Part shown: in pieces, positions 16,002 through 33,309 of the stretch
Layout: every line of letters starts with the position of its first letter
Position numbering within the stretch: the stretch's first letter is position 1
The notes under the pieces: generated by a model
The model's input: only the letters and a program-made list of their open reading frames with translations
Database searches by the model: none
What the model was told of the DNA's origin: nothing
Translations under genes and position numbers: made by a program
NCBI GenBank assembly: GCA_039591855.1
Contig: JBDHCV010000002.1
Coordinates: forward strand, 1-64,000
From: Gemmatimonadota bacterium
GTDB taxonomy: Bacteria > Gemmatimonadota > Gemmatimonadetes > Longimicrobiales > Gaopeijiaceae
Length of the DNA stretch: 64,000 nucleotides
Reading direction: 5' to 3'

Positions 16002-16038
16002 TACCCATGCCCGACCTACTCACAACCTGGAGGTCGGC

Positions 16039-17063: not shown

Positions 17064-17180
17064 CAAGAACGGCAGATCGTGCGCTCTACCAATGAGTTAG
17101 ACGTGTTCTTGCCGTGATTCGGCTTGGCCGATTATCGATTTGCAGGCAGGAGGTCGCCGGTTCGATCCCGGCAGGCTCCA
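17064..17180 (+). repeat. Composite tRNA-derived repeat, copy A. A 9-bp-stem hairpin holds an inverted tRNA D-arm-like segment, then a spacer, then a direct copy of the tRNA-Ala 3' half (17139..17180). attR-like.
   Basis: ggcaagaacggcagatcgtgcgctctaccaatgagttagacgtgttcttgcc is a hairpin (ggcaagaac/gttcttgcc) whose loop resembles the reverse complement of the tRNA D-arm (GCGCTCTCCCAACTGAGCTAAGG). ttgcaggcaggaggtcgccggttcgatcccggcaggctcca matches the tRNA-Ala 3' 42 nt with one mismatch. Confidence 0.8.
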
Positions 17181-17193
17181 CTGGCGTAAGGCG

Positions 17194-17488: not shown

Positions 17489-18877
17489 TCATGACCGCTC
17501 GCCGCGATTGGACCGGAAGAACTCGTGGTAGTGCTCCCGTAGTGCCTCGCGTAGCACGGTCTCGAAGGCGAGCAGCTCGAACCGTTGCTCCTTCCCAAGG
17601 GACTGGAGGAAGGGCGAGCGGTGGAAGCAGCGAAGGAAGATCCGGGGCTGCTCGGACTCCCGCCGAAGGACCAGTCCCGCGCGGAGGTTCACGAGCTCGT
17701 CCGACTCGCACAGCAGATAGATCGGGGTGCCCTCGATGGAGCTGACCTGAGTACCGACGGCCTCCCATGTACCCGGGTCGTCCAGGTCGAGATCGAGACC
17801 AAGAATCGGGACTGAAGTATCGCCCACGTCTGCCTTGAACCGTCGCAGGTGCAGAGTCGCCTCCGGGTCCACTACAACGACGGCCGCCAACTCGGCTCCC
17901 GCCTCCTTCAGCAGGAGTTCGAGAATGGTCTGGGCAAATCGACCGAATCCGGCCAATACGACGATGTCCCGCGCTTCCGTGGCCTCGAAATGAAGAGCGA
18001 GATGGATCTGATAAAGGTACGAAGCCGTCACCTGACGGGTATTGAACCCTTTGGGCACGGTGTGCCCCTTTGCTGCCCGCTCCACCGGGCGGAGCAGGGC
18101 GAGGTCTCCGACGTGGACCGCGATGGGTAGGTCCGGGGCGCCTGACTGGGCCGACCAGGCCAACTCCAGATTCGCCAGGTCGTCGTCCGTGACGACCACG
18201 AGGCCGAGAGCACCCTCGAGATGCAGAGGCGCCAATGCGTCCTCCCCCGCTCCAGACAGTCGGACGGTCTCCACGTCCGTCAGCTCTTCTGACCGATCGA
18301 CCTCGTCGGCCAGGAGGACCGGCACCTCCGGGTCCAACGATCGAATCGCGTTCAGGTAGATCCGTCCGATCGGGCCTCCCCCGACCACCACCATGTGCCC
18401 GCTCGATCGTCTCTTGAACCACTGGGGCCGAACGAGCTTGAGAAACGCCTCGGCGACGGCCGTCGTGGTGAGGGTGGGAGCGAGGAAGTAGGCCAGCCAG
18501 AGCATTCCGCGTCCCGCGGCGGACCCGCCGGTGGGTACCCCCAGGTCCAGCCCTCCGAAGACGAAGAGCCCCCCCGCATAATAGATCCAGGCGATCCACG
18601 GGTCCGAGGCGAGGGCAGGCCGCTCGCTGGTACCGACGCCAGTCGCGAATGCGACACCCGCCAGGACGAATACGGACAGGAAGGCGATCCATCGGAAGGA
18701 GCGCAGTGTCCGGGCGACCCGCTGGAGGGTGAGGCTCACCGTTGCGAAACCGGATTCAAGTGCCGGGAGCCACGCCCGCTGCCTCGCGGACCAGGGCGGT
18801 GACCACGGCTCGCCGGTCCTCGGAAACGGCGGCAATGAACGGTCCCGAGTGGGACACCGGATCCACCGCTCTACCAT
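17489..18877 (-). CDS. Two-TM ion-channel-like membrane protein with a cytoplasmic TrkA-N/RCK (Rossmann) domain and no GYG selectivity filter. The true start is probably downstream of the annotated ATG because the first ~120 nt overlap the IMPase gene.
   Basis: TM1 FRWIAFLSVFVLAGVAFATG, pore-helix-like WIAWIYYAGGLFVFGG, TM2 MLWLAYFLAPTLTTTAVAEAF, then HMVVVGGGPIGRIYLNAI (GxGxxG NAD-binding fold of RCK/TrkA-N). Confidence 0.55.
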   Translation of the reverse strand: MVERWIRCPTRDRSLPPFPRTGEPWSPPWSARQRAWLPALESGFATVSLTLQRVARTLRSFRWIAFLSVFVLAGVAFATGVGTSERPALASDPWIAWIYYAGGLFVFGGLDLGVPTGGSAAGRGMLWLAYFLAPTLTTTAVAEAFLKLVRPQWFKRRSSGHMVVVGGGPIGRIYLNAIRSLDPEVPVLLADEVDRSEELTDVETVRLSGAGEDALAPLHLEGALGLVVVTDDDLANLELAWSAQSGAPDLPIAVHVGDLALLRPVERAAKGHTVPKGFNTRQVTASYLYQIHLALHFEATEARDIVVLAGFGRFAQTILELLLKEAGAELAAVVVVDPEATLHLRRFKADVGDTSVPILGLDLDLDDPGTWEAVGTQVSSIEGTPIYLLCESDELVNLRAGLVLRRESEQPRIFLRCFHRSPFLQSLGKEQRFELLAFETVLREALREHYHEFFRSNRGERS

Positions 18878-19673
18878 CCAGATCGGTCACCATCCCACCC
18901 GCGCCCTTCATGAGCAGGATTCCCGCCGCCAGGTCGTACGGACTGGCGGGCCGCTTGGACCAGAGGTTGACGTAGACAAAGTCCCCACGGGCTGCTTCCA
19001 CCAGGGCCCAGGCAGGGGAGCCTCCCGGGGACCGGACCATCCGGACCGTCTCGGACTCCCAGGCCCGATACAGGCGCCCGACCAGATCCGACCCTCTTCT
19101 GCCCGGGTGGACGTTCACGAGGAGCGGCCCCGTTTCGGCGCCGGGCCCAGGGAGGGTAGCGCCGTAATCCGCCTCCCCGTAGACCGAGAGCTGCAACAAC
19201 CGTGTGGGCCTCCCAGCTGCGGCATAGCCGATCTGGCCGGTGGCCGGGTTGGACACCATTCCGAGTACCGGGACCCCATCTCGGAAGAGGGCGAGGGTGG
19301 TGGAGTACGTTTCGGTCCCGGTGAGAAACGCCCAGGTGCCGTCCACAGGATCCACGGCTAGAGCCATTCCCCGGTCGACCAGAACTCCACCCAGCTCCTC
19401 GCCCACCAGCACGGCATCCGGATCGAAGTCTCCGAGTCTGGAGGTGATCCGCTCCTCCACTCTCGTCTCGAGCTGCGTGACCGGAGATCCGTCGGTCTTA
19501 AGCGACACGTCGGCTTCCCCTCCCCGAGATCCCCGCACGGCTTGCGCTGCCTCGAGAAGGACATGCAGGCCGAACTCGACCCAGGCTGAGCTCACCTCTC
19601 CAGCTCTGGGAGGGGGGGCGTCGCCGGCTCGGAACCGCGCGATCACACTGGACTCGAGGTCGTTCAATGACAT
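18756..19673 (-). CDS. Inositol monophosphatase family protein (IMPase/SuhB/CysQ-like phosphatase)
   Basis: Signature AVDPVDGTWAFLTGTETYSTTLAL (DPxDGT) and C-terminal PYDLAAGILLMKGAGGMVTDLDG (WDxAAG-like). Start at the internal ATG of MSLNDLES, 4 nt after the stop of the upstream gene. Confidence 0.8.
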   Translation of the reverse strand: MSLNDLESSVIARFRAGDAPPPRAGEVSSAWVEFGLHVLLEAAQAVRGSRGGEADVSLKTDGSPVTQLETRVEERITSRLGDFDPDAVLVGEELGGVLVDRGMALAVDPVDGTWAFLTGTETYSTTLALFRDGVPVLGMVSNPATGQIGYAAAGRPTRLLQLSVYGEADYGATLPGPGAETGPLLVNVHPGRRGSDLVGRLYRAWESETVRMVRSPGGSPAWALVEAARGDFVYVNLWSKRPASPYDLAAGILLMKGAGGMVTDLDGRAVDPVSHSGPFIAAVSEDRRAVVTALVREAAGVAPGT

Positions 19674-19677
19674 CGCA

Positions 19678-22278
19678 TCATCCGGTTCGCGAGAGCATTT
19701 CTTCGGCCTCCGAGGATTCCACCTGCCCCCGTTCAGCCAGTTCCTGGATAGCACTCCGAATGAACTCCACCTGTCTACCCGGCACCCGGTTCACCACATC
19801 GGCCGTCAACGGCCACCAGCGAATCTCATCGAACTCGCCGCCGGGGTCGAATGCGGGAAGACCGACCCCCGGGTCGAGAAGAAGGAGGTAGGCCTTGCCC
19901 TCGACCCAGGCGTGGTCTGTTTGCCGTCGGTCGTAGGTGAATCCCTCCGAGACGAGCCAGGTCTCGGCATCTCCGACCGTCACCCCGGTCTCGTCCGCCA
20001 GGACACGGGCCACAGCAGCGGACGGCGCCTCTCCCGGCAGCACGAAGCCCTGCGGAAGGCCGAGATCGGAGCTTCCATCGACTCCTCCGAGGACGATCTC
20101 CAGGCTCCCCGAGGCTGACTCTCTTCGGACCACGAGCACCGCGACCGCCGCGTTGGGCCCCCAGAGCCCCAGGAGCCCACGACCCGCGATGCCCGTGCGG
20201 CCATGCGGGTTCAACGGCCGGCCCTCATCGTCCCGGAACCTCGCCTCAATGGCAGCGAGTGCCTCGGCGATCGATTGGTAGTCTTCCGGGTCGGCCCAGC
20301 CCCCTTCGCCTCGACTCCGGTCGCTCGATGTTACCGACGGGTCCACGTGGTAGGGCGGATCATACTCCTCGCAATCCAGCAACCACGGAGCCTGGTCGAT
20401 GGAGATCCTCTGCCGAGGCGGATACGAAGGCGGGCGCTCACCACGGATCTTCAGGTGGAAGTCGTCCTGGACCAGATCGAACACGAGGGCGTTCACCGAA
20501 CTGAGGGCATACAGGAGGGCCGGCACATCACACTCGCCCCTGTCCCGGCGCTTGTCGAAGCTCAGCGTGTGCAGAGCGTATCGAAGTAGCGCGACACGGT
20601 AGGCCAGCCAGTCGTCCCCCTCCTTGAGCAGGAAATACGACTCCCGTATCCGGCGCACGGCATCCAGGACCTTCCGGAAACGGAGATCCCACTTAACAAA
20701 CCGCAACTCGTCCGGCAGATTGGTCGACTCAGGGGGTATCGCGTGGGCCAGCAGGTAATCTTCCAGCTTATTGAGCCGATCCGCGTCCTCGAGCTCGAAC
20801 TCCTTGCTCATGACGAACTTGACGTCACTCTCCATCTTTGCGAAGTCGAGTTCGAGCGGTGCCTGGCCACTGTGTGTCCAATCGATGAACCATATGTTGT
20901 CGCCGTCATCACAGATGATGTTGGCGAAGTTCAGATCTCCGTGGCTCAAGCTAACGGTGCTCTCCAGGCCGTCCTCGTTGGCGGACACGAGCCGCAGGAG
21001 CTTCGCGAGGCGATCCACGTCGAGTCCCTCGGCGGAGTGGCCGGCCTCGGACACATAGCTCAGGATCAGCTCTGCGTTCTGGCGCATCCATCGGACCTGT
21101 TGCTCCGTATGCAGGCCGAAGGCGCGATAAGGCGCGACCCAACTCCGGTCCGCAGTGTTTCCGTATAGCTTTTCGGAGAGGAGTCCCAGGGACCTGTCCA
21201 GCCGGCGCATGAACCGCTCTAGCCCCGCCTCTCCCTCCGCCTCTTCAAAGGTGTCCTGAAGCGTCTGGGGACGGCCCTCCATGGCGGCGAGATCCATCCC
21301 CACCCCGATCGAATCGCCGAGGGCCACAGGGTAGCCGAAGGTCGGTACGTGCTTCCCGAAGAAGTCCTTTACCTGGTGATACCCGTTCAACTCCCGCCGC
21401 ATCTGCTCGAATGCGTCGATCTTCACGACCAGGGGCTCGGTCCGGGCGTTCCCCTTCCAGCCATCCGCCAGGAACAAGAGGCTGCCGCTGAACCCACCGG
21501 CCAGTGGGCGCAGCCGGGCGCGGCTCCAGTGCATGCAGAGAAGCTCGACGATCCTGCGTTCGGAGTCTTGCAGAGCCTCCAGGGCTTCCGGCGGCTCGAT
21601 GGCCACGGGAGCGAACCCAGAGCCGTCGATGCGTTCCGGATCCAGCCCCACGAAACGTGCGGCCTCTTCCAGATCCAGGATCACGTCGATCCCCGATGCG
21701 GGAAGCGTGTGGCGCAACGCCGCGAGATGGGCCTCTTGGGTGGAACTTCCGACCAGATGCGGACAGACCGCCACTCGCTCACAACGCCAGACGTTCCGCA
21801 GGAAGGACGCGAGGCCCAGAACTCTCCTTTCGGTGTGGCAGCCCACGACCAGGAAGGGAATGTCCCGGACGGCGTCGGCGTCGAGACCCATGTCCTGGAG
21901 TGCCCGACCGAGGCCGTCCGCGGGGATCACTCCCGGTGGAGCGGACACGGTGACGGCTGCTTCGGCCGGGTGGGTCAGAGGATCGATGACGGCGGTGGAC
22001 CCCGGTACCGGAGCCTCACCGGGCTTGGCCTCCGGCTTCAGCCCCGGCTCCAACAGGATCAGCGCAGGGTCGCCGGCGCCTCCCACGCTCTCCGCCACCG
22101 CCTCCAGGAAGACGACCAGGGGTCCATCTCCGAACGTCTTCCCTCTCCCGACCAGTCGCTCGATCTCCCGGTCCCCGACGTTGTCACGGGACGTGCGGTG
22201 GGGATGGTCCGGGCTAAGGAAGTCGGGGGCGAGACCGTCCGCGATCACGATCGCGCGCACGGAGTCTTGGTCTTTCAC
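19678..22278 (-). CDS. 866-aa three-domain fusion protein: N-terminal isochorismatase/cysteine-hydrolase-like domain, central aminoglycoside-phosphotransferase (APH/choline-kinase fold) kinase-like domain, C-terminal NUDIX hydrolase domain
   Basis: N-terminal IPFLVVGCHTERRVLG is a candidate Cys nucleophile region. Central GGFSGSLLFLADGW (Gly-rich loop), VSLSHGDLNFANII (HGDxxxxN catalytic loop) and IWFIDWTHSG (IDW) mark the APH fold. C-terminal GFVLPGEAPSAAVARVLADETGV fits the Nudix box Gx5Ex7REUxEExGU. GTG start overlaps the TGA stop of the upstream K+ channel gene (GTGA coupling). Confidence 0.65.
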   Translation of the reverse strand: MKDQDSVRAIVIADGLAPDFLSPDHPHRTSRDNVGDREIERLVGRGKTFGDGPLVVFLEAVAESVGGAGDPALILLEPGLKPEAKPGEAPVPGSTAVIDPLTHPAEAAVTVSAPPGVIPADGLGRALQDMGLDADAVRDIPFLVVGCHTERRVLGLASFLRNVWRCERVAVCPHLVGSSTQEAHLAALRHTLPASGIDVILDLEEAARFVGLDPERIDGSGFAPVAIEPPEALEALQDSERRIVELLCMHWSRARLRPLAGGFSGSLLFLADGWKGNARTEPLVVKIDAFEQMRRELNGYHQVKDFFGKHVPTFGYPVALGDSIGVGMDLAAMEGRPQTLQDTFEEAEGEAGLERFMRRLDRSLGLLSEKLYGNTADRSWVAPYRAFGLHTEQQVRWMRQNAELILSYVSEAGHSAEGLDVDRLAKLLRLVSANEDGLESTVSLSHGDLNFANIICDDGDNIWFIDWTHSGQAPLELDFAKMESDVKFVMSKEFELEDADRLNKLEDYLLAHAIPPESTNLPDELRFVKWDLRFRKVLDAVRRIRESYFLLKEGDDWLAYRVALLRYALHTLSFDKRRDRGECDVPALLYALSSVNALVFDLVQDDFHLKIRGERPPSYPPRQRISIDQAPWLLDCEEYDPPYHVDPSVTSSDRSRGEGGWADPEDYQSIAEALAAIEARFRDDEGRPLNPHGRTGIAGRGLLGLWGPNAAVAVLVVRRESASGSLEIVLGGVDGSSDLGLPQGFVLPGEAPSAAVARVLADETGVTVGDAETWLVSEGFTYDRRQTDHAWVEGKAYLLLLDPGVGLPAFDPGGEFDEIRWWPLTADVVNRVPGRQVEFIRSAIQELAERGQVESSEAEEMLSRTG

Positions 22279-23648
22279 AGCAGCACTCCCTCGAGTAGCA
22301 GGTCCGAACTCAGGTCACTTCGCTCCGAGGAGACCCGCTTGAGCACGTCGCGGAACTCCGGGTACGTATCGCGTATGGCTCCAAAGTCCCGCTCGCTCAG
22401 TGAGAATGTCTCGCTGAAGGTCAGCGCGCGCACGGAACCGGTACGTTTCTCGTTTAGCAACATGGACAGGTCGCCAAAGTAATCTCCCTCTCGGAGTACG
22501 CCGACCCGGTGTTGCTCCGGGGACAGGACCTCCAACTGGCCCTGGGTCAGGAATTGAATCTCCGCCCCGGCCTCGCCAGCGTGGGAGACCCAACTTCCTG
22601 GGACGAAGACCCGCGGCTGCAGGGCCATGAGGAGGACGTCCCGCAACGGCCGGCTGCATTCCCGGAAGAGTGGTACGTGCCGTGTGAGGTCTCCGGCAAG
22701 ATGGGCCAGCACATCGAGACGGATCGAATCGGGGAGGTCCTGGAGGGCCTCTCGGGCTGAGATCCCCCTGTATCGAGCCCAGACGTAGTCGTGGTAGTCA
22801 CGGACCTGCCGGGTAAGCTCCTGAGGCACTTTCCGGTTCTTCAGGTACTGGTTCACCGAGTCGACACGGTTGCGGAATACGGCCCGTGCCGAATCGATGC
22901 TCGAGACCAGCGCAGCAATATTCCCGATGATGTAAGCCCACAGGGATGCCCCCAGGAGCATGACCGCCATCGCGAAGCCGTACTCCAGGTTGTGCCGGGG
23001 GGTGATGTCGCCGTACCCGACGGCGGTCATGGTCACGATCGCCCAGTAAAGTGAGCGAACGTACTGCGTTCCTCGGGTCTCGCCCACCAGTCCTTCGACG
23101 GCGGCCCATGAATCGGGCGGGAATCCGGCGGCATGGTCCATCAAGAACCACGCGCTCGCCGTCCAGTGGAGGAACAGGGTCGCCACGGCAGCGAGCTTGG
23201 CGATCCGAAGAACGCCGAGGTTCGCCCTTCCCTGGGCCTCCCACCTCCGGAAGATCAGGAACATCCGCGCCACCCGGAGGAGTCGGGGAACCCGGGCCCA
23301 GAGGACGATCGACACCCCCCCAACGGAGACGGACGCCCAGGGGAGGAGTAGCAAGTCGAACGGGATCGATCCGAGGAGATCGACACCGAACATGCCGCCC
23401 CCATACCGCCCTCGCACCGACTCGGGTTCGCTGACCTCGACGCCTCCCGTGCGATAACTCGTGCGGAAGTTGAGAGCGATGTCGGCGAGGAAGAAAGCAT
23501 CGATCAGGTAAAGCCCGATCGATGAAAGGAGGATGGGTCGGTGTACGAAGCCCACCTGGTACGGAACCAACAGGCACGAAACGCCGACCAGAACGAGCGC
23601 GACAAGATCCCATCGGGATCGGAACCGCGACCCCTCAGGGATGATCAC
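22275..23648 (-). CDS. Cyclic-nucleotide-gated potassium channel (voltage-gated-like 6TM K+ channel with a C-terminal cNMP-binding domain, MloK1-like)
   Basis: Selectivity filter TMTAVGYGDITP. C-terminal CNB-domain features LREGDYFGDLSMLL ... RTGSVRA (cAMP/cGMP phosphate-binding-cassette-like). Confidence 0.8.
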   Translation of the reverse strand: MIIPEGSRFRSRWDLVALVLVGVSCLLVPYQVGFVHRPILLSSIGLYLIDAFFLADIALNFRTSYRTGGVEVSEPESVRGRYGGGMFGVDLLGSIPFDLLLLPWASVSVGGVSIVLWARVPRLLRVARMFLIFRRWEAQGRANLGVLRIAKLAAVATLFLHWTASAWFLMDHAAGFPPDSWAAVEGLVGETRGTQYVRSLYWAIVTMTAVGYGDITPRHNLEYGFAMAVMLLGASLWAYIIGNIAALVSSIDSARAVFRNRVDSVNQYLKNRKVPQELTRQVRDYHDYVWARYRGISAREALQDLPDSIRLDVLAHLAGDLTRHVPLFRECSRPLRDVLLMALQPRVFVPGSWVSHAGEAGAEIQFLTQGQLEVLSPEQHRVGVLREGDYFGDLSMLLNEKRTGSVRALTFSETFSLSERDFGAIRDTYPEFRDVLKRVSSERSDLSSDLLLEGVLL

Positions 23649-23667
23649 GCTGGCAACCCCAGGATCC

Positions 23668-24000
23668 TCAGAACCCCTCCAGGGCTTCGGCCTCCGTGCC
23701 GAATACGCTCAAGATCATGCTGAAGCCGGAGATCTCGAACACCTCGTTCACGGTCTCGTTCAGACCGCAAATCCGAAGGTTACCACCGGAGGCCGACATC
23801 TTCTTCGCAGTGCCGAGAAGCACACGGAGTCCTGCGCTGCTGATGTAGTCCAGATCCTGGAAGTTGACGATGATTTTCTTCACGCCCTCAGCCCCCAGCC
23901 GGTCAAGGCTGTCCTGTGCCTCCGGGGCAGTGTTGGTATCGAGGTTCCCCTCGAAGTGGACGACGCTCACGTCGCCCTGATCATTGACCGAGATGTTCAC
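23668..24000 (-). CDS. STAS-domain anti-sigma-factor antagonist (RsbV/SpoIIAA-like)
   Basis: 110 aa. DYISSAGLRVLLG carries the conserved phosphorylatable Ser/Thr region of SpoIIAA-type STAS proteins. Confidence 0.75.
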   Translation of the reverse strand: MNISVNDQGDVSVVHFEGNLDTNTAPEAQDSLDRLGAEGVKKIIVNFQDLDYISSAGLRVLLGTAKKMSASGGNLRICGLNETVNEVFEISGFSMILSVFGTEAEALEGF

Positions 24001-24008
24001 GTGCGATG

Positions 24009-25703
24009 CTACTCCTTGTCGCTCTCTGAGAGGTACTTGACGAGCACGACCACGTTTCGGTCGGTACGTCGGGTATAGGACACCTCGTCCATCAGACTTT
24101 CGACGAGGTGGATGCCCAACCCGCCGATTTCACGCTCGTCGACGGGTTGGGCAGTATCCGGGGAAATGCGGCCAAATGGGTTGAACGGTCGACCGTCATC
24201 GGCCATGCGAACCGCGAGTCGGTCCGAAGACAGCTCGACATGGATGTCGATGATACGCTCGAGGTCATCCTCATAGGCATAGGAAATCACGTTGTTCAGA
24301 AGATCGTCGAAGACGAGCTTCAGACTCCTGCGGACCCGGGTCGGTAGCCCATGCAACTCCGCGAATTCGTCGAACGCACGGTTCACGGCGTCGATCTCTT
24401 CGTAGCGGTTCCGAGCTTCGAGGTGGAGTCTGTGGACGTCGGAAACACCGAGGGCTCGTCCCGCGAACTTGACTGCGAGAACCGTGACGTCATCCGCCTG
24501 CTCTGCGTCAGCCTGGAACCGCCACACGTCCTCGGTCGAGGCCCCCACCACCTCTTCCACGGAGGGCGACTCCTGGGCGCTCAACACCTCCACCAAGCGC
24601 GCCTCCTCGTAGAGGGTCCCCGCTGGGTCCATTGCCTCGGTGACCCCATCCGTATACAGAAAGACGAGATCATCAGGCTGCAGAGTCGTGGACTCTTGGC
24701 CATAGACCAGCCCCTCGACGGCCCCGACCACCGGGCCGTGGCGCGCGTCGAGGCGCACGGGATCACCCCCGTCAGGCTTCACGTAGGGCGGGTTGTGCCC
24801 AGCATTCGTGTACACGAGCGCGCCGGAAGTCACATCGAGGATTCCGAGCCACAGGGTCACGAACATGGCGGAGTCGTTATTCCGCGCGATCTCCTCGTTG
24901 ACGTGGGTCATTATGCTCGCGGGCGAGAAGTCGTTCGAGGCGCGGGACTTGATGAGCGTTTTGGTCACGGCCATGAACAGCGCGGCCGGGACACCTTTCC
25001 CCGACACGTCCCCGACGCAGAAGCAGAAGCGATCCTCGTCGATAAGGAAGAAGTCGTAGAAGTCGCCCCCGACCTCACGAGCAGGCTCCAGTGTGGCGAA
25101 GACCGTGAACTCGTTCCTGTGGGGGTACGGGGGGAACTCCAGGGGCAACATGCTCATCTGGATGTCCCGACCGATGTTCAGTTCGCTCTCCATCCGCTCC
25201 TTTGCGGTGGTGGTCCGACGAAGGTCGTCGAACGATGCTTGCAGCTCCCGGTTCTTGACCGTCAGCTCCTGCATCAATGCGTCCCGGCCCTTTTGCTCGA
25301 TGAGTCTTCGGAGGCGACCGATCACCGAGTCCGTGAGCCCATTCTTCGGTATCTGCACGAGATCGACACCGAGACGCAGGCCAGGGATCCCATCGACTTC
25401 GGCGGGCTGAACGGTGTCGAAGAACGCCTCGGCCATTCCGCGGTCGATCTCATCTCGGACACCAACCAGCTCGAGAACGAACTCTGGCGGCTCCCGATCC
25501 GTGCGGATCCCGACCTCGATCCGACCGTCCTCGGAATGGCGGTCGACCAACCGGATAAGCTGTGATGTGGCGGATGCGATCCGACTTGCCAGCATCCCGT
25601 CTCGAGTCAGCTCCTCGAGCGCGAGCCGAACGTTCCTTCGTCGTTCCCGGACTGAACCGGTAGCCCCTACCGACAACGAGCCGAGCCTGATCATCGCTCC
25701 CAC
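24009..25703 (-). CDS. PP2C-type phosphatase (SpoIIE/RsbU-like) fused to a C-terminal RsbW-like HATPase_c anti-sigma kinase domain
   Basis: PP2C motifs VGGDFYDFFLIDEDRFCFCVGDVSGKGVPAALFMAV and YTDGVTEA. C-terminal ATP-lid GGLGIHLVESLMDEVSY. Coiled-coil N-terminal region as in RsbU. Confidence 0.75.
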   Translation of the reverse strand: MGAMIRLGSLSVGATGSVRERRRNVRLALEELTRDGMLASRIASATSQLIRLVDRHSEDGRIEVGIRTDREPPEFVLELVGVRDEIDRGMAEAFFDTVQPAEVDGIPGLRLGVDLVQIPKNGLTDSVIGRLRRLIEQKGRDALMQELTVKNRELQASFDDLRRTTTAKERMESELNIGRDIQMSMLPLEFPPYPHRNEFTVFATLEPAREVGGDFYDFFLIDEDRFCFCVGDVSGKGVPAALFMAVTKTLIKSRASNDFSPASIMTHVNEEIARNNDSAMFVTLWLGILDVTSGALVYTNAGHNPPYVKPDGGDPVRLDARHGPVVGAVEGLVYGQESTTLQPDDLVFLYTDGVTEAMDPAGTLYEEARLVEVLSAQESPSVEEVVGASTEDVWRFQADAEQADDVTVLAVKFAGRALGVSDVHRLHLEARNRYEEIDAVNRAFDEFAELHGLPTRVRRSLKLVFDDLLNNVISYAYEDDLERIIDIHVELSSDRLAVRMADDGRPFNPFGRISPDTAQPVDEREIGGLGIHLVESLMDEVSYTRRTDRNVVVLVKYLSESDKE

Positions 25704-26791
25704 CTGCAGGCAACGACCGCCGCGTCGTCATGGCGCTTGCCGTAGCGCGACACCACACGATCGGCGATCACGGCGGCGCCATGAAAGCGGAGCTGTGGGT
25801 AGTCCTTGAAGGAGGTTCTCTCCGAGATCCCATCGCTGTGGATCAGGAGAACCTCGCCTTCCTGGAGAGTCGCGGTCTCGACGCGCACTTTCTTGAGTCG
25901 GGTCCCGACCGTTCCAGCGGTAGCGGCGATGCGGCGGGACGTGTCGCCCTCGAGGCGAAGAACCGTGTTCCCCACCGCGGCGTAGCGGAAGGCGCCCGAT
26001 CCCAGGTCTATCCAACAGAGCGACACAGCGGCTCCAACAGTCCGAGCAAGCCTCTCATTCACCTGGATCATCAACTGCTCCAGCTGAAGGGTTCCGCGCT
26101 CTCGGATCAGGCGAACCGCCGCCTTGGCCGCGGCATTCGCCTCACGCCCGTGCCCCATCCCATCCACGACCCCGATCAGGACGCCGCCGTCCGCCTCCGT
26201 GATCGAAACGGCGTCGCCGCTGACAAGTTCTCCCCGGCAAGGGCGGTTGACGAAGGCGAGTTCGAGCGTTGCGGCGGTATCACTCTTTCCCGGGAAACGA
26301 GCCTCTCCGCGCGTGGTGCCCCGCTCCGCGAATGCGTCACTGTGAGCCGACGCGACCGCAGCGGACCGATACCGCGACGATGAGTGACGAGAGCCCCTCC
26401 ACTTCCGCACGATCACCTTCGTCCCGACCCCGACTTTGGAGGTCAGATCGAAGTCATCGACCATCCGCCGCACACCGGGAAGACCGAGTCCCAGCGTTCC
26501 ACTGGAACTGAAGTGGTCCTGCAACGCCTCGTCGACGTCCTCGATCCCCGGTCCGCGATCCGTGACCGTGACCTGAAGTCCGGATCGGGATCCCTCCTGG
26601 ACCTCCTCGAGCAGGACGATTCCACTCGTGGCGTATTTGAGTACGTTGGTGGCGAGTTCCGAGACTACGGTCCCAAGGGCCTTGGCCTCGGACTCCTCGA
26701 ACCCTGCGCTCCGTGCGATGGCCACCGCGGAACCCACTGCGTGGGCGACGTCCGCGTCCCGTCGTACCCGCTGTATGGCCCTACGCGTCAT
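25691..26791 (-). CDS. RsbT/RsbW-like HATPase_c Ser kinase domain fused to a C-terminal PP2C (SpoIIE-like) phosphatase domain
   Basis: N-box ELATNVLKYA, G1 VTDRGPGI, G2 GTLGLGLPGV. Then PP2C motifs LIGVVDGMGHGREA and LIHSDGI. Confidence 0.75.
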   Translation of the reverse strand: MTRRAIQRVRRDADVAHAVGSAVAIARSAGFEESEAKALGTVVSELATNVLKYATSGIVLLEEVQEGSRSGLQVTVTDRGPGIEDVDEALQDHFSSSGTLGLGLPGVRRMVDDFDLTSKVGVGTKVIVRKWRGSRHSSSRYRSAAVASAHSDAFAERGTTRGEARFPGKSDTAATLELAFVNRPCRGELVSGDAVSITEADGGVLIGVVDGMGHGREANAAAKAAVRLIRERGTLQLEQLMIQVNERLARTVGAAVSLCWIDLGSGAFRYAAVGNTVLRLEGDTSRRIAATAGTVGTRLKKVRVETATLQEGEVLLIHSDGISERTSFKDYPQLRFHGAAVIADRVVSRYGKRHDDAAVVACRWER

Positions 26792-27269
26792 CGTCGTGCA
26801 CGACGGCCTGGGCCCAATCTTCCGGCGTCGCTTCGCCGGGCAATTCAGACCCCTCTGGGCCGGCTATCACCGGTCCGGAGACCTCCGAGCCGGACCCCTC
26901 CTCCTGACCGAAAACGCTGAATGCGTCGTCGAGCGTTGCGGTCGCTTCGACGCCTCTCGTGTCCACTCCGAGATCGATCAGCGCGGCCACGACCCCGGCG
27001 TTCAACCCCGACAACACCGTTCTTGCTCCCATGAGCAAAGCCATTCTCATGGTGTCCCTGATCGCCCGGTAATCCTCGCCATCCATCACGTCCACTCCGG
27101 ACAGATCGAGGATCACCCCCCGGGCACCCGACGCTTGGAGGAAGTCGAGGAGCTCGTCTCTGAACGCGGCCAAGATGCCCTCGTCCAGATCGACCTGTAT
27201 CGACGCGACGACGCACCCCTGGGCGAGCTGCAGGGGGATTCGGGAAAGCGAATCCGCCGCGGGCCTCAC
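26781..27269 (-). CDS. RsbS-like STAS-domain protein (stressosome scaffold/antagonist)
   Basis: 162 aa. STAS fold with ILDLSGVDVMDGEDYRAIRDT. Overlaps both neighbours by 4-11 nt. Confidence 0.7.
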   Translation of the reverse strand: MRPAADSLSRIPLQLAQGCVVASIQVDLDEGILAAFRDELLDFLQASGARGVILDLSGVDVMDGEDYRAIRDTMRMALLMGARTVLSGLNAGVVAALIDLGVDTRGVEATATLDDAFSVFGQEEGSGSEVSGPVIAGPEGSELPGEATPEDWAQAVVHDDDA

Positions 27270-28177
27270 CGCTCGCGCGTCCCTAGTCGGCCCGGAGCCC
27301 CGACGACATGAGACAACGCGTCCCTCATGGTCGCAGTGGTCTTGACCTCACCGACGTCGATGCCCAGATCGACGATCGTCTGTGCGATGGCGGGAGAGAC
27401 TCCTGAGATCGTGGTTTCACAGCCCATGAGTTTGGTGGCGCGGGTGATCTTGATCAGATGGTTCGCCACCGCGGTATCCACGACTCCCACACCGCTGATG
27501 TCGAGAATGAACACCCTGGCTTGGGTCTCCGAAATCTTACCGAGGGTCGCGTTCATGATGTCTCGCGAACGCTTGGAGTCGATGATCCCGACGATCGGTA
27601 GGAACAGCAATCCCTGCCAGATCTCGGTTACGGGCGTGGACATCTCCATCAGGGACCTGGATGCTGCGGTCAACTCCTGCTCCACCAGGTAGTTGTAGGT
27701 GTCCACAACGATAGCGGTGTCGAAGTGGAGTAGCTTGACCACGGACTCCACCATCAGGTCGCGGTCGCCTGGGTCGATGTCGCACTCCCGAATCGTCTCG
27801 CTGAACAACTCGTGGAACATGTTCATGCCGGCGAAGAAGATGTTGAGCGGCAACCCGATGCGGGCGTGGGTCTCGCCGACCACGGACCGGCGGCGCACAT
27901 AGTCCTCGTCGACCTGGCCGTCCATGAAGAGGTTCCAGTATGGCTCCTGGAGCTTCTGGACCCGGCGAACAGTCTCCGGATCGGAAAAGAACTGGTCATA
28001 GTCGGGATGCTCTTCCAACCAGGCATACCATCGGTCCACGATCTCGTCCATCCGGGCGAGCGCTAGCTCTCCGAAACTGCGGATCCGTTCCAGGTCTTCC
28101 TCTCCGATCCGGTACAAGTCCAGTAGTTCACGATGATCCGGATGGGTCGGGTGGTTGATCGCGTGATGGTCTGCCAT
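27266..28177 (-). CDS. RsbR-like stressosome sensor (N-terminal non-haem globin-like sensor domain + C-terminal STAS domain)
   Basis: 303 aa. C-terminal STAS with ILDISGVGVVDTAVANHLIKI and a conserved Thr region. N-terminal ~150 aa all-helical, as in RsbR. Confidence 0.7.
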   Translation of the reverse strand: MADHHAINHPTHPDHRELLDLYRIGEEDLERIRSFGELALARMDEIVDRWYAWLEEHPDYDQFFSDPETVRRVQKLQEPYWNLFMDGQVDEDYVRRRSVVGETHARIGLPLNIFFAGMNMFHELFSETIRECDIDPGDRDLMVESVVKLLHFDTAIVVDTYNYLVEQELTAASRSLMEMSTPVTEIWQGLLFLPIVGIIDSKRSRDIMNATLGKISETQARVFILDISGVGVVDTAVANHLIKITRATKLMGCETTISGVSPAIAQTIVDLGIDVGEVKTTATMRDALSHVVGAPGRLGTRER

Positions 28178-28241
28178 TGAATCCTCTTTGGTTGTTGACC
28201 AGGCCGCCGAAGTACATTCTGGTCAGCTCAATGCGTCGTGT

Positions 28242-30101
28242 CTATGCGTCGTGCGCTTCCGTGAGCCGGATCGCGTCCCGGAGGGTCCTCGCGGTGAGAA
28301 TGCCATCGAGTTCCACCCCCTGGTCGGCCATCTCGGAGGCCAACGCAGGTTGGATCCCGGAGATGATAACTCCCGCGCCGAGTAGCCGAGCTGACTGCGC
28401 TATGCCCAGGAGTTGGAGCGTCACGCGTTCATCCAGCCGAGGCACACCTGTGAGATCGAGAATCGCAAAGCGTGCCCCCTTCTCATGCAGTTCCCGGGTC
28501 AGGTTCCGACGGATCTGGTCGCAACGGACCTCGTCGAGCTCGCCGACGAGCGGGAGCACGACGACATCGTCATGGATCGGAATCAGGGGGGTAGAGAGCG
28601 CCTCGATGGATCGGTTCTGACGATCGATCAGGTCACGAAGCGACACGCGCATTGTCTCGAAACTCCTCGCGAGATCCCCGATCTCGTCCCCCCGGCCTAC
28701 ATCTACCTCGACCTCCAACTTCCCGTTTGCGAGTCGTGCTGCCGTCTCGGCGAGTCCAAGGATCGGGCGGACCAGATTCGCCGCGAACCAGAACCCCAGA
28801 AGACCCAGGAGGGGCAGGAGTCCGGCAAGAGCGATCAGCATTCTGCGACCCAGCGCTCCAACCGGAGCGAGGGCCTCCTGAACGTCGATCTCGCTCATCA
28901 ACACCCAGTCCAACCCAGTTATGGACAGGGGACGGAAGCTCGAGAACACCTCGATTCCTCGATAGTCGAGGAACCGCGCAACGCCGGATTCGCCAGTCAA
29001 CGCCCGTCGGACTCCTTCAGTCGACACCGGTTGGAGGCCGACCGCGCTCCCCTGGGCAGCGATGGCGCGAACCACATCCTCGCCCACCCCTCCCTCCCGG
29101 ATCGCCTGCAGATACCCCTCGAAGTCCTCGATCAGGAACCGGGATTCGGTGCGTAGCCGTTCGTCAGGGCCCACGAGGTAGGCCTCGCCGCTCTCGCCCA
29201 TCCCCACCGATCGCCAACCTCCACCGCTGGTCATGGTCTCGTTGATCCGGTCCAAGGGCAGTTGGAACACGAGGACTCCGAGGAGTTCATCCCCGTCCAT
29301 GACCGGAGACGCGATGAATGACGCCGGTGCGCCATACGAGGGCGGATAGGGCGCGAAGTCGATCAGGCGGCTGAAGGAGTCCGACTCGGACTCCCGGGCG
29401 ACCCGATACGCCTCCGCCAAATTGGAATCCCGGTGGGGGCCCACCTCCAGGGACGTGCCGAAATCCACCTCTTTGAACACGGTATACACGATCCGGTGGT
29501 CGGTCGCGCTCACCAGAAAGAGGTCGTAGAACCCGAACCGCTCCAGGAAGGACCTGAAAATCGGGTGATACAGCCCATGGACGCCATCGTAGCGGGTCCC
29601 CGAGTCAGACCCGTCGAGCAGTTGCTTCGACCCTACCTCGAACGGATTCCCGCTGATGAACAGGTGCTGGAGATGTCGCGCCGATTGGTCCTGGGGGATG
29701 TAGGCGGTGGCCGGTCCCGGATCGTCCACGTTCGCCGAGAGGCGAGGAAGGAATTCGTCCTGGTAGTACAGGCTGAGAGCGAGATTTGCTTCGCCGTCTA
29801 GGGGTGGGACGGCTCCAAGTTCCTCGGTCGCCGCGGAGAACTCCCGGAGGGCGTCTACTACCATCCGGTTCTCCGACAGGGAGACGACCTGAGCGCGGAT
29901 CATCTCGAAGTATGCTTCGACCTGGCGTCCCTTCAACTCGCGAACGGAGGTCAGGTGATCGATCGCCTGGCGCTCCAGGGTCGAAACTCCCAGCCGGTAC
30001 GACACCGTTGCCATCGTGCCGAGGGCCAGGACTGCGACCAGTCCCAGTACCACGTGCACCCTGTAGCGAATGGACCGGTCACGGCGGAAGGTATCGAGCA
30101 C
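28242..30101 (-). CDS. Membrane sensor: N-terminal TM, periplasmic dCache-like domain, second TM, HAMP, C-terminal STAS (RsbR-paralog-type membrane stressosome input)
   Basis: TM1 VVLGLVAVLALGTMATV, about 330-aa periplasmic region, TM2 LIALAGLLPLLGLLGFWFAANL, HAMP (PILGLAETAARLANGKLEVEVD...GDEIGDLARSFETMRVSL), then STAS ILDLTGVPRLDERVTLQLLGIA. Confidence 0.65.
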   Translation of the reverse strand: MLDTFRRDRSIRYRVHVVLGLVAVLALGTMATVSYRLGVSTLERQAIDHLTSVRELKGRQVEAYFEMIRAQVVSLSENRMVVDALREFSAATEELGAVPPLDGEANLALSLYYQDEFLPRLSANVDDPGPATAYIPQDQSARHLQHLFISGNPFEVGSKQLLDGSDSGTRYDGVHGLYHPIFRSFLERFGFYDLFLVSATDHRIVYTVFKEVDFGTSLEVGPHRDSNLAEAYRVARESESDSFSRLIDFAPYPPSYGAPASFIASPVMDGDELLGVLVFQLPLDRINETMTSGGGWRSVGMGESGEAYLVGPDERLRTESRFLIEDFEGYLQAIREGGVGEDVVRAIAAQGSAVGLQPVSTEGVRRALTGESGVARFLDYRGIEVFSSFRPLSITGLDWVLMSEIDVQEALAPVGALGRRMLIALAGLLPLLGLLGFWFAANLVRPILGLAETAARLANGKLEVEVDVGRGDEIGDLARSFETMRVSLRDLIDRQNRSIEALSTPLIPIHDDVVVLPLVGELDEVRCDQIRRNLTRELHEKGARFAILDLTGVPRLDERVTLQLLGIAQSARLLGAGVIISGIQPALASEMADQGVELDGILTARTLRDAIRLTEAHDA

Positions 30102-30113
30102 GGTTCGACTCGG

Positions 30114-30515
30114 TCAGACCTTTGAGACCTGAACGCGGCCCGCAGGCAGCGTCAGGTAGAACACCGGCTCGGTGATCACCGAGAGGACCGGGTAGATTCG
30201 GCCGCCTTGCTTCAGGACGTCGCCCAGGCGGACGGCGACTGTGGTACGCCCGTCTTCCGACCACTGGCTGTCAGAGGTCGTGGTGAAGGCGAGCCCCGGC
30301 CCGATCTGAGCGGCCAACGAGGTCGCTCCCCCCTCGTAGACGTTCACCACGGCCTCGGATGGATCCGGATTCGCTGCGATGGTCCATGCCCCGGTGTCGG
30401 GATCCTGGCTCAGAAAGTCCTCCAGTGATTCCCGGAACAGGATAGTGTCTGAGGTAAAACCACTCTCCTCCAACACCTGTCGGAGTCTCTCATCCATCTT
30501 CGCGTCATTCGTCAT
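30114..30515 (-). CDS. Hypothetical protein (133 aa from the internal start MTNDAKMDERL)
   Basis: ORF 30114..30578. The first 21 codons overlap the flotillin gene end, so the internal ATG is used. Acidic, no TM. Confidence 0.35.
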   Translation of the reverse strand: MTNDAKMDERLRQVLEESGFTSDTILFRESLEDFLSQDPDTGAWTIAANPDPSEAVVNVYEGGATSLAAQIGPGLAFTTTSDSQWSEDGRTTVAVRLGDVLKQGGRIYPVLSVITEPVFYLTLPAGRVQVSKV

Positions 30516-30537
30516 CCAGGCCACTCCGCTATTCGAT

Positions 30538-31827
30538 TCAGTCGAGTTCACCAGGGAGCCCCGCTTCGCCCCCCCCACTCCCCTTCGCCAGCCTCGCTAC
30601 GTCGATCCCCGTCGCGTTCTCCACCTGTTCCAACATGGTGATCGCGCTCTTCGAGAGGTTCTTCACGTAGTTTGGGAGCCCCTCCCCGTCGCCGCCGTCG
30701 AGAATGGTAAGCTTGTCCACCCGCAGGTTGTCGGCCATGACCCGAGTGACCTTGTCCAGGAGGCCCGGCAACATCTGGATCAGAAACAGGTCGCTGGTCG
30801 CGCCGCCGGCCACCTGCTTCTGCATCAACTCCACCGCCTCCGACATCGCCCTCCCGTTTTCGAGAATCCGAGAGGCCTTCCCCTCGGCCTCCATGGCGAG
30901 CGCCTTCTGCCGGGCCTGTGCCGGCACGACCGTATCAGCTTCCTCGCGATGGGCGCTGACCTCGACTCTCTTGGCCTCCAACTCGATCTCGCGCTCAGCT
31001 CGGGCGATCTCACCTGAGATAGCGGCCCGCCCCTCCGCCTCGTTCGCCTTCGCCGCGAGGTCCGCACGTTCTACAGCGAGTTCGTTCTCCCGGAGGATCA
31101 CCACCCTCTCCGAGGCGATCTCGGCCTCTCGGCCGATGCGGGTCTGCTCGGCCGCAACCTGGCGGGCCTCAGCCTCAGCCTCTGCCTCGGCAATACGGGC
31201 GTCCCGGCTCACCTCCGCAGTCCGCTTGCGGCCGATGGCATCCAGATATCCCTGGTCATCGGTGATGCTCTGGATCTGGAGGAAGTCCAGGACAATGCCG
31301 AGGCGGTTCAGGTCCTCGCGAGCACGCTCCACGACCTTCCCTGCGATTTCCAGGCGCTGGGCATTGGCCTCCTCCGGACTTACCGACGCGACGATGCCGC
31401 GAAGCGAACCCTCCAGCACCTGCCGCGCGGTCTTGTCCACGGCCTCCGTGCCCTTGCCAAGGAAGCGCTCCACAGCACTCTCAAGCCCCTCTTCGGGCCG
31501 CCCCGCCAGCTTCACGTTGGCCCGGCCCTCTATGTTCACGGGAATCATCCCGGCACAGAGAACCTTCGAGAGGTGAATGTCGACCGTGCGGGTCGTAAGG
31601 GGCAATCTCATCACCGACTCCACGAACGGTCGCTTGAAGCCCCGACCGCCCCGGATCACCCGGTACCCGATCGAGGTGCCGTCAGCGAGCTTGCGGGACC
31701 GCCCCGCCAGAATCACGACCTCGTTGGGCTGGCAAATCACCATGTTCGACTTGATGAACACGATGAGGAGGAACACGGCGAGTATCCCAACCCCGAGGGA
31801 AATCCCGATCAGTTGTGCTGAGTCCAT
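30538..31827 (-). CDS. SPFH/Band-7 family protein, flotillin-like (YqiK/FloA-like)
   Basis: N-terminal TM ISLGVGILAVFLLIVFI, SPFH domain, then long Ala/Glu-rich coiled coil (EAEAEAEARQVAAEQTRIGREAEIASE...), characteristic of bacterial flotillins. Confidence 0.75.
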   Translation of the reverse strand: MDSAQLIGISLGVGILAVFLLIVFIKSNMVICQPNEVVILAGRSRKLADGTSIGYRVIRGGRGFKRPFVESVMRLPLTTRTVDIHLSKVLCAGMIPVNIEGRANVKLAGRPEEGLESAVERFLGKGTEAVDKTARQVLEGSLRGIVASVSPEEANAQRLEIAGKVVERAREDLNRLGIVLDFLQIQSITDDQGYLDAIGRKRTAEVSRDARIAEAEAEAEARQVAAEQTRIGREAEIASERVVILRENELAVERADLAAKANEAEGRAAISGEIARAEREIELEAKRVEVSAHREEADTVVPAQARQKALAMEAEGKASRILENGRAMSEAVELMQKQVAGGATSDLFLIQMLPGLLDKVTRVMADNLRVDKLTILDGGDGEGLPNYVKNLSKSAITMLEQVENATGIDVARLAKGSGGGEAGLPGELD

Positions 31828-31857
31828 TGTCCGTCCTCTCCGATCTCGGAGCTCGGT

Positions 31858-33297: not shown

Positions 33298-33309
33298 CAG
33301 CGTCCCCCG

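Follow-up and report, generated by a model that had tools for sequence, protein, structure and literature searches.

The Bacillus subtilis RsbR/S/T-RsbU-RsbV-RsbW-SigB cascade runs in the logical order of sensor STAS proteins, RsbT, a PP2C phosphatase, a STAS protein and an RsbW-type kinase, and serves a sigma factor. In the Vibrio-type RsbRSTX module with a globin-coupled RsbR (V. vulnificus), a protoglobin-STAS RsbR is followed by RsbS, RsbT and an RsbX-type PP2C, no sigma factor lies downstream, and the output classes named in the source text are PP2C phosphatases, c-di-GMP turnover and His-Asp phosphorelays (PMC9237108). In SypE-SypA of Vibrio fischeri and BtrU/W/V of Bordetella, one STAS protein is the substrate of both a PP2C phosphatase and an RsbW-like kinase; in SypA/SypE and BtrV this STAS protein is itself the output, without a sigma factor (PMC8256260). 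Here, we analyzed a 64,000-nucleotide (nt) stretch of a Gemmatimonadota genome (GCA_039591855.1, contig JBDHCV010000002.1, positions 1 to 64,000; hereafter the window) that carries a 15-gene block, in which a stressosome and a partner switch of these kinds lie between an amtB-glnK-glnA-flotillin operon and the genes for a cyclic-nucleotide-gated K+ channel, a three-domain protein that we call Tri, an IMPase-family phosphatase and a membrane protein with a TrkA_N/RCK domain. We read the block as one horizontally mobile unit, built onto the operon, that would couple what is sensed in the environment to outputs at the membrane that are post-translational instead of transcriptional. We give this reading an even chance of being right.

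The block has the protein families and the logical order of the B. subtilis cascade, but it lacks sigB, carries the RsbU and RsbW counterparts as one polypeptide in which Pfam detected no RsbU_N domain, and has predicted membrane and enzyme outputs. It shares with the Vibrio-type module, which likewise occurs in aquatic bacteria without a downstream sigma factor and has a PP2C-type downstream protein among its described architectures, the order of protoglobin-STAS RsbR, RsbS, RsbT and RsbX-type PP2C. Unlike the module as described there, the block has RsbT and RsbX fused, a second, dCache-HAMP-STAS membrane input and an RsbS without a conserved phospho-Ser, and its downstream genes (K+ channel, Tri, IMPase and glutamine synthetase operon) fall outside the output classes named in that text (PMC9237108). 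As in the SypE and Btr systems, a PP2C and an RsbW-like kinase would act on a single STAS protein; the domain order is different, the window has no REC domain, and a neighbouring channel and kinase take the place of biofilm or secretion genes as putative targets (PMC8256260). By this comparison, the sensing half is a recognisable variant of a Vibrio-type RSTX stressosome with a SypE/SypA-like switch, and the channel comes from a known family. An earlier note on this DNA, made from the sequence alone, had not recognised the combination as a described system. We found no description in the literature of Tri proteins as a family or as partners of the IMPase, of a HopF-like protein in such a setting, or of the attachment to amtB-glnK-glnA-flotillin; all carriers are uncultured (metagenome-assembled genomes and metagenomes), which may explain this.

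Results

A gene set that recurs around Tri

The block lies on the minus strand and spans 17.5 kb (17489-34948), as delimited by the open reading frame (ORF) listing, Pfam and independent gene calls on contigs with identical proteins. The spacing at its junctions ranges from -11 to +30 nt, except for the 64 nt between the dCache gene and RsbR, and several junctions are 4-nt overlaps. The earlier note had begun the string at flotillin; it continues upstream on the same strand through glnA, glnK and amtB with gaps of 30 nt (flotillin-glnA), 12 nt (glnA-glnK) and 16 nt (glnK-amtB), so that it holds 15 genes and not 12. From flotillin to the TrkA_N gene, the single-strand arrangement and the overlap of the channel stop with the Tri start (4 nt) are as that note had described them, and its overlaps of 4-13 nt or gaps below 35 nt fit most junctions but not the one between dCache and RsbR. 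All of its domain assignments were recovered by Pfam and independent gene calls, the isochorismatase fold being visible only through structure prediction.

A scan of GTDB species representatives returned 79 Tri loci, of which 73 hold true family members; all are metagenome-assembled genomes (MAGs), and the 73 carry about 15 phylum- or class-level taxon labels. Each component was counted in these loci by tblastn, with the 15 proteins of the block as queries. The IMPase is the most constant neighbour of Tri (61 of 73 loci, 84%), followed by RsbV (44, 60%), PP2C (42, 58%) and the RsbW-type kinase (41, 56%), and the K+ channel is found in 28 loci (38%) under 10 taxon labels. Flotillin was counted in 22 loci, glnA in 21, amtB in 20 and glnK in 19, with at least one gene of this operon in 30 loci under about 10 labels. 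RsbR, RsbS and RsbT are present in 14-15 loci each (about 20%) and the dCache-STAS gene in 14, in all of which RsbR, RsbS and RsbT co-occur; the TrkA_N gene occurs in 14 loci, exclusively in Gemmatimonadota, and the small gene that the earlier note had called hypothetical in 15. The conserved core is the Tri-IMPase pair with a simple partner switch, which about 60% of the loci have, and the stressosome is an accessory input in about 20% of the loci. Among the 24 Tri loci of at least 18 kb, 11 hold the whole amtB-glnK-glnA-flotillin set against roughly 0.1 expected at random, and the recurrence of the gene set around Tri is far beyond chance.

Gene order and orientation are shuffled among lineages (for example in L026, L034, L038, L044 and L054-56). 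In Bacteroidota, the order is RsbW-RsbV-Tri-IMP with PP2C-flot-glnA-glnK-amtB on the opposite strand; in a deltaproteobacterial MAG, it is amtB-glnK-glnA-flot-KCh-IMP-Tri-RsbR-RsbS-RsbT-PP2C-PP2C::RsbW-dCache-RsbV; and in Acidobacteriota, amtB-glnK-glnA-flot-Tri-IMP. The channel and Tri, which the earlier note had linked to the Rsb genes within this one genome, are syntenic with them in many genomes in rearranged order. Retention of the same membership through rearrangement is a classical signature of functional coupling, and because the same set recurs over many taxon labels, it looks like one undescribed signalling unit.

The partner switch and the missing sigma factor

In the stressosome, the Thr of the RsbR motif VVDT is invariant in 13 homologues. 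The HATPase_c_2::SpoIIE gene lies directly after RsbS, and in four loci (L038, L044, L091 and L106) it is split into RsbT and then PP2C. In view of these split loci, which keep the order R-S-T-PP2C and show the RSTX arrangement described for globin-coupled stressosomes (PMC9237108), the protein is best read as an RsbT-RsbX fusion with a putative RsbX-type feedback phosphatase. The halves of the SpoIIE::HATPase_c_2 protein are likewise separate genes in many loci; its PDB matches are RssB-type PP2C, Rv1364c, RsbW and SpoIIAB. RsbV keeps the phosphorylatable Ser, in the motif SSAGLRVLL that is conserved in nearly all of 44 aligned homologues. Judged by these domains and motifs, PP2C::RsbW and RsbV form a complete partner switch, the only one in the block. 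The STAS, HATPase and PP2C calls of the earlier note are supported by Pfam, but the double partner-switching cascade that it had drawn from them reduces to this single switch.

No sigma factor gene came up in the gene calls of the block and the DNA on either side, a heuristic tblastn search with SigB and RpoE as queries gave none in the 64-kb window, and no conserved sigma gene was seen in roughly 170 loci examined, in line with the absence of a sigma factor stated before. Single-linkage ORF clustering of the 79 loci, which is noisy from stop-to-stop fusions and GC-rich shadow ORFs, yielded no further conserved family and no sigma factor. An alternative is that a SigB- or SigF-like sigma factor encoded elsewhere in the genome has the RsbW-like domain as its anti-sigma factor, with the channel, Tri and the IMPase as members of its regulon or passengers of the operon. 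The RsbW half does match the anti-sigma B and anti-sigma F models (below their cut-offs) besides RsbW and SpoIIAB in the PDB, the Ser motif of RsbV is canonical, and a sigma factor could act in trans, only 64 kb of the genome being in view. We nevertheless consider this alternative unlikely, given the absence of a conserved sigma gene over so many loci and the adjacency of the partner switch to the channel or Tri, which persists through many rearrangements; moreover, kinase-phosphatase fusions such as SypE act via a STAS protein and not via a sigma factor (PMC8256260).

A channel subfamily associated with partner switches

The channel is a full-length homologue of SthK, LliK, CNGA1 and HCN in the PDB (E about 1e-61), and it has, like SthK and LliK (PDB 6cjq, 5v4s), six transmembrane helices, a K+ pore with GYG, a C-linker and a cyclic-nucleotide-binding (CNB) domain; the Arg-Thr of the phosphate-binding cassette is conserved. 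It differs from SthK/LliK in that the first Thr of the filter is Ala. Genes of its subfamily often lie beside partner-switch genes. The filter, given as TVGYGD in the earlier note, reads TAVGYGD here versus TTVG[YF]GD in most homologues, one homologue having Ser. With Ala at this position (residue about 209), the side-chain hydroxyl of the innermost K+ site is lost. Such a filter might alter selectivity, which is of interest given the adjacent ammonium genes.

Channel homologues of 54%, 51% and 49% identity sit in full or partial Tri clusters. Nine contexts of the subfamily besides the window were available, four of them with the Tri cluster (two contigs for P0286) and three with partner-switch genes without Tri. 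In two of the latter, 51% homologues close a cluster of hybrid kinase, REC-PP2C-HATPase_c_2, STAS, SulP-STAS-cNMP transporter and channel, and one channel homologue adjoins a lone RsbW-like (HATPase_c_2) gene. The former arrangement is seen at L169:4435-12688 and L172:2228-8380, where a sensor kinase, REC-PP2C-HATPase_c_2, a 110-aa STAS protein and one or two SulP-STAS-cNMP_binding transporters accompany the channel; this suggests a wider role of partner switches in controlling transport proteins with CNB domains. The presence of the channel beside partner switches even without Tri favours ion flux as one output. Of the output proposed earlier, namely ion flux or membrane potential together with a nucleotide pool instead of transcription, the first part is strengthened by this partly Tri-independent association; the nucleotide part is not (see below). 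For the TrkA_N protein, a PDB sequence search gave no informative relative.

Tri and the IMPase-family phosphatase

Tri is a compact uncharacterised family of about 860 amino acids with nicotinamidase-like, kinase and NUDT9-like domains. It comprises 374 proteins at E<=1e-10 in 90% clusters, and 99 representatives at E<=1e-30, roughly 20-25 of them full length, among 1.84 billion 50% clusters; the sources label these only 'ADP-ribose pyrophosphatase' or 'NUDIX domain-containing', and no named NCBIfam subfamily was found for Tri. The kinase motif HGDLNxxN is present in 79 of 80 homologues (HGDINFAN in the other), VxK and IDW are also conserved (77-80 homologues), and the window copy reads VVKID, HGDLNFAN and IDWTH. 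The C-terminus matches human NUDT9 (1q33) with an E of 8.6e-24 over residues 15-272 in hmmsearch, and TRPM2 NUDT9-H with an E of about 4e-20, both cap and core being aligned. Its Nudix box, RVLADE, is degenerate relative to REUXEE: the first Glu is found in none of 65 homologues (V 36, I 11, A 9, others 9), and the second-last Glu in seven of the 65. The isochorismatase motif GxxTxxCV, whose register is taken from the M. tuberculosis PncA sequence, has become GCHTERRV, with mostly Arg and never Cys at the nucleophile position in 76 aligned homologues. Both degenerate domains are retained in the great majority of full-length members seen. Most simply, Tri would be a kinase with an ex-enzyme domain on either side, each relating to one half of NAD+. 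The nucleotide-processing fusion enzyme of the earlier note is therefore doubtful, as only the kinase keeps its catalytic motifs while the Nudix box and the Cys are lost throughout the family.

A RILGEE box leaves NUDT9 inactive, and human TRPM2, with RILRQE, binds ADP-ribose but does not hydrolyze it (PMC6461439). The Tri box, R-[VI]-L-x-x-E, likewise lacks the Mg-binding Glu when compared with NUDT9 and TRPM2 NUDT9-H (PDB 1q33, 6mix). Because the catalytic residues are lost and the Nudix box is like that of human TRPM2, the nicotinamidase-like and NUDT9-like domains are probably sensor domains. As in TRPM2, the sensor-like domain comes with a cation channel, here encoded by a neighbouring gene. 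Unlike in TRPM2, it is bacterial and fused to a kinase and a nicotinamidase-like domain instead of to the channel, and its ligand binding is a prediction.

In the IMPase, the metal-binding motifs DPVDGT and EE are present. Against the NCBIfam HisN, CysQ, FBPase/IMPase and NADP-phosphatase models, the protein scored far below all cut-offs, the best named match, itself sub-threshold, being the histidinol-phosphatase HisN. In a Leptospiraceae MAG (L065:7263-13498), Tri-IMPase comes after one HisZ-like gene and a pair of genes for HisG (ATP phosphoribosyltransferase), a single-locus hint at phosphoribosyl chemistry. In L046 and L066, a Na+/H+ exchanger fragment and a spermine-synthase-like gene adjoin Tri.

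These last neighbours would suit a role of the block in osmotic or K+-glutamate homeostasis, in which stress opens the channel, Tri-IMPase makes or recycles a compatible solute derived from inositol phosphate or sugar phosphate, glutamine synthetase and AmtB adjust glutamate and glutamine, and the resemblance to NAD/ADP-ribose proteins is a residue of ancestry. The joint presence of a K+ channel, a TrkA_N protein, an IMPase-family enzyme, glutamine synthetase and AmtB fits this explanation, as do the sampled habitats, largely those of marine or sediment MAGs. However, ORF clustering of the Tri loci showed no conserved inositol-phosphate synthase or CDP-inositol genes nearby, the TrkA_N gene is confined to Gemmatimonadota, and the retention of the degenerate NUDT9-like and nicotinamidase-like domains in most full-length Tri proteins argues that they are in use. 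We regard this explanation as quite improbable.

The ammonium-assimilation operon, flotillin and an ADP-ribosyltransferase-like protein

A metagenome scan with the single flotillin sequence as query gave nothing; this query, also used in the PADLOC run (see below), was 30616-31827, the first 404 of 429 residues, which leaves the results unaffected. When an alignment of its subfamily served as query instead, 168 relatives were found in metagenomes, and the best 80 loci (L084-L163) were examined. In essentially all of these best 80 of 168 that have upstream sequence, glnA lies directly upstream of flotillin, usually with amtB-glnK before it. The Rsb/Tri genes follow the operon only where the flotillin is at least about 56% identical to the window copy, and they are lacking around more distant flotillins with 10-kb flanks. 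The amtB-glnK-glnA-flotillin operon, of which we found no description in the literature, is much more widespread than the Tri module. In a Chromatiaceae MAG (L067:6631-9165), the gene overlapping the Tri start encodes a major-vault-protein-like protein (Vault_3 and MVP shoulder); this vault-shoulder/SPFH-like protein may replace flotillin there as a scaffold.

The T-loop of GlnK has the Tyr of KYRG. Phosphorylation of PII as in the cyanobacterial Ser49/PphA system was considered as a target of the Tri kinase and rejected, the T-loop having Val at that site.

The small protein of 133 amino acids, which the earlier note had listed as hypothetical, was modelled with a pLDDT (predicted local distance difference test) of 77, and the only significant Foldseek match of the model is 1s21 (E 7e-6), that is, HopF1/HopF2 (AvrPphF ORF2; PMC3384090), whose aromatic-Arg motif is kept. 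This motif is invariant in the family, and 30 of its 32 members have weak matches to PF09143. What had been missed was this ADP-ribosyltransferase (ART)-like fold, together with the linkage to amtB-glnK-glnA-flotillin and the boundaries of the island. The catalytic acid of HopF1 is Asp174 (PMC3384090); the residue that corresponds to it by the approximate register of the Pfam match (E111) is Glu in 30 of the 32 members and Leu in the window, and the window copy may be inactive. Unlike HopF, the 133-aa protein is much shorter, has no secretion signal context, sits in a housekeeping-type cluster of free-living bacteria and here has Leu at the putative position of the catalytic acid. ADP-ribosylation is tied to AmtB and PII in the DraT/DraG-GlnB/GlnK-AmtB control of nitrogenase, which likewise brings ADP-ribosyltransferase and NAD-derived chemistry together with AmtB and PII in a fast, post-translational manner at the membrane (PMC6067124). 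Unlike that system, the block holds no DraT, DraG or nitrogenase, and its ART is HopF-like.

Boundaries of the island-like block and surroundings

The last 30 nt of an intact tRNA-Ala(TGC) gene (12761-12790) are repeated exactly at 17152-17181 and 35219-35248, where 0 would be expected by chance, and with one mismatch at 43002-43031. The three downstream copies have ~115 nt in common, including a non-tRNA arm of about 70 nt. This arm holds GCGCTCTACCAATGAGTTAGAC, which resembles the reverse complement of the tRNA D-arm, a likeness for which we offer no explanation. The repeats split 12.8-43.0 kb into three tandem island-like segments: 12.8-17.2 kb with an integrase, an MNT/HepT toxin-antitoxin pair and hypotheticals; 17.2-35.2 kb with exactly the 15-gene block; and 35.2-43.0 kb, filled by two Ser/Thr kinase-PD40 genes (Table 1). 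GC content is 0.60-0.66 over 12-37 kb versus 0.67-0.70 outside. An Rfam scan of the window found only the tRNA-Ala, and a tRNA scan of 51 related loci gave no consistent tRNA linkage, so that the island structure appears specific to this genome. The block has the look of an island, or else of a cis-mobilisable element that lacks its own integrase. Since the repeats bound the block exactly, they provide an independent argument that amtB-glnK-glnA belong with the rest.

Table 1 Features of the block, its boundaries and its surroundings (positions in the window)
Feature	Position	Strand	Evidence or remark
Intact tRNA-Ala(TGC) gene	12717-12790		
MNT/HepT (NTP_transf_2 / HepT-like) toxin-antitoxin pair	about 12920-13538	-	Same 4.4-kb segment as the integrase
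Tyrosine integrase	15898-16962	+	Directly before first repeat; only integrase, in neighbouring segment, none in 15-gene block
att-like repeat ending in 3' half of tRNA-Ala	17068-17181	+	One block boundary
Membrane protein with TrkA_N/RCK domain	17489-18739	-	Last gene of block; Pfam TrkA_N E 1.6e-10
IMPase-family phosphatase	18756-19673	-	Pfam Inositol_P E 1e-26
Tri, 866 aa, whole gene	19678-22278	-	Pfam APH/TCAD9 kinase, NUDT9_N, NUDIX
Tri domain 3, NUDT9-like cap and Nudix fold	19756-20430	-	PDB 1q33 match; PF25969 NUDT9_N, PF00293
Tri domain 2, APH/TCAD9 kinase-like	20479-21516	-	Pfam TCAD9 E 2e-26, APH
Tri domain 1, isochorismatase/nicotinamidase fold	21529-22278	-	Structure prediction
SthK/LliK-type cyclic-nucleotide-gated K+ channel	22275-23648	-	Pfam Ion_trans, Ion_trans_2, cNMP_binding
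RsbV-like anti-anti-sigma-type STAS protein	23668-24000	-	Pfam STAS E 5e-22
RsbU-like PP2C::RsbW-like serine kinase	24009-25694	-	Pfam SpoIIE E 1e-50, HATPase_c_2 E 1e-22
RsbT-like kinase::RsbX-like PP2C	25691-26791	-	Pfam HATPase_c_2 aa 13-130, SpoIIE aa 201-364
RsbS-like single STAS protein	26781-27269	-	Pfam STAS E 2e-8
RsbR, protoglobin sensor and STAS	27266-28177	-	Pfam Protoglobin E 1.6e-31, STAS
dCache-HAMP-STAS membrane sensor, RsbR-like stressosome input	28242-30101	-	Pfam dCache_1, HAMP, STAS
133-aa protein, HopF/AvrPphF-ORF2-like ADP-ribosyltransferase fold	30114-30515	-	Predicted structure, weak PF09143
Flotillin/SPFH	30538-31827	-	Pfam Band_7 E 2.5e-26
glnA, type I glutamine synthetase	31858-33297	-	Pfam Gln-synt_C E 5e-124; NCBIfam TIGR00653 594.6 bits, above cut-off
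glnK, P-II protein, 111 aa	33310-33645	-	From Met24 of ORF reaching 33714; Pfam P-II E 8e-17
amtB, ammonium transporter	33662-34948	-	First gene of block; Pfam Ammonium_transp E 2e-130
Second att-like repeat	35135-35248	+	Other block boundary
Ser/Thr protein kinase, large, C-terminal PD40/beta-propeller repeats	37360-40146	-	Third segment
Ser/Thr protein kinase, paralogue of the preceding, C-terminal PD40/beta-propeller repeats	40047-42917	-	Third segment
Third repeat copy	42918-43031		Downstream of block
906-aa ORF, N-terminal patatin-like phospholipase domain	43153-45873	-	Just past last repeat

The surroundings raise the question of a phage-defence or conflict island, in which an NAD-consuming ART, a TCAD9-type kinase, a Nudix domain and a channel effector would act in abortive infection. 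The position of the block in a row of tRNA-linked islands, with an integrase and an MNT/HepT pair close by, is consistent with this, and so are the ART fold of the small protein, which is that of toxins, and the Pfam family TCAD9, which is named for conflict systems. We down-weighted this explanation after PADLOC, run on ten cluster proteins, returned no defence family and only generic CNB-domain similarity. The tight linkage to the housekeeping-type amtB-glnK-glnA in many phyla, the loss of catalytic residues from the would-be NAD-processing domains and the absence of a STAND or AAA+ partner also speak against it, and we hold it to be very unlikely. That independent operons are juxtaposed by accident, without functional coupling, can hardly be credited: the channel family and the amtB-glnA-flotillin operon do each also occur alone, and promoter and terminator scans of 17-36 kb were uninformative (fewer matches than in shuffled sequence, no convincing internal terminators), but synteny contradicts it, with the same components around Tri in 73 loci in varied order and orientation, and so do the 4-nt overlaps at several junctions and the enclosure of the whole set within a single pair of att-like repeats.

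Discussion

In reading the block as a mobile post-translational signalling unit, we infer the order of signalling from the Bacillus/Vibrio stressosome paradigm and put forward ligands, a kinase substrate and a physiological target as proposals. The heme-globin RsbR and the dCache-HAMP-STAS sensor would assemble with RsbS and hold the RsbT kinase, which would carry its own RsbX-type reset phosphatase. Freed RsbT would activate the PP2C half of PP2C::RsbW, this half would dephosphorylate the RsbV-like STAS protein, and the RsbW half would re-phosphorylate it. The phosphorylation state of RsbV, or the free RsbW domain, would then control the SthK-type channel and the Tri-IMPase pair by protein-protein contact. 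Tri, a predicted active kinase, would sense nicotinamide and ADP-ribose through its nicotinamidase-like and NUDT9-like domains, the latter in the manner of TRPM2 NUDT9-H, and the IMPase would undo the phosphorylation by the Tri kinase of a substrate that is a sugar phosphate or a nucleotide. In carriers with an intact copy, the HopF-like enzyme might supply an NAD-derived signal or mark. Overall, K+ flux and the assimilation of ammonium would be adjusted quickly within flotillin microdomains.

Several observations weigh against this reading. First, the tie of RsbV/RsbW to the channel or to Tri is one of gene adjacency, and the block has no nucleotide cyclase to feed the CNB domain of the channel. 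Second, the position of RsbS equivalent to Bacillus Ser59 is Gly here and is not conserved among homologues (G/A/S/T/R/F/L/P/Q in L001-L062), and the dCache-STAS protein likewise has no acceptor at the equivalent site; without a conserved phospho-acceptor in RsbS, the release of RsbT may differ from the Bacillus mechanism. Third, three channel homologues of 48% identity lie in unrelated contexts, and since the ammonium operon is so much broader in distribution than the Tri module, the linkage between the two could reflect a favoured landing site. Fourth, only about 20% of the Tri loci have the ART-like gene, which therefore cannot be essential, and its putative catalytic Glu is Leu in the window. 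At last, the comparison genomes are all MAGs, in which some taxon labels may be binning errors, and with 27 of the 73 Tri loci from Gemmatimonadota many loci are phylogenetically non-independent.

Three independent components of the block, the ART fold and the NUDT9-like and nicotinamidase-like domains of Tri, point to NAD+/ADP-ribose chemistry, and the most constant partners of Tri are the IMPase, the partner switch, an SPFH scaffold and the ammonium-assimilation operon. A bolder proposal, which we consider unlikely, is that the block represents an unrecognised, horizontally mobile system that signals through NAD+ and ADP-ribose and serves nitrogen and ion homeostasis. The ART would mark glutamine synthetase, GlnK, AmtB or the channel, or would release ADP-ribose and nicotinamide, in flotillin microdomains, and Tri would read the products through its dead NUDT9 and nicotinamidase domains as a bacterial counterpart of TRPM2 gating. 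Tri and the IMPase would set the phosphorylation of a messenger or target, and the stressosome and partner switch would gate this device and the channel without a sigma factor.

If the reading of the block as a post-translational signalling unit is true, the stressosome and partner-switch field would gain, in the ion channel and the enzyme pair, a clear candidate for an output that is direct, does not pass through transcription and is conserved enough for interaction work. The degenerate Nudix box of the Tri family would parallel the evolution of the TRPM2 ADP-ribose sensor. Furthermore, the very wide conservation of amtB-glnK-glnA-flotillin as an operon is a hint that membrane microdomains organise the assimilation of ammonium, and the block suggests a link of nitrogen control to ADP-ribosylation chemistry outside the DraT/DraG paradigm.

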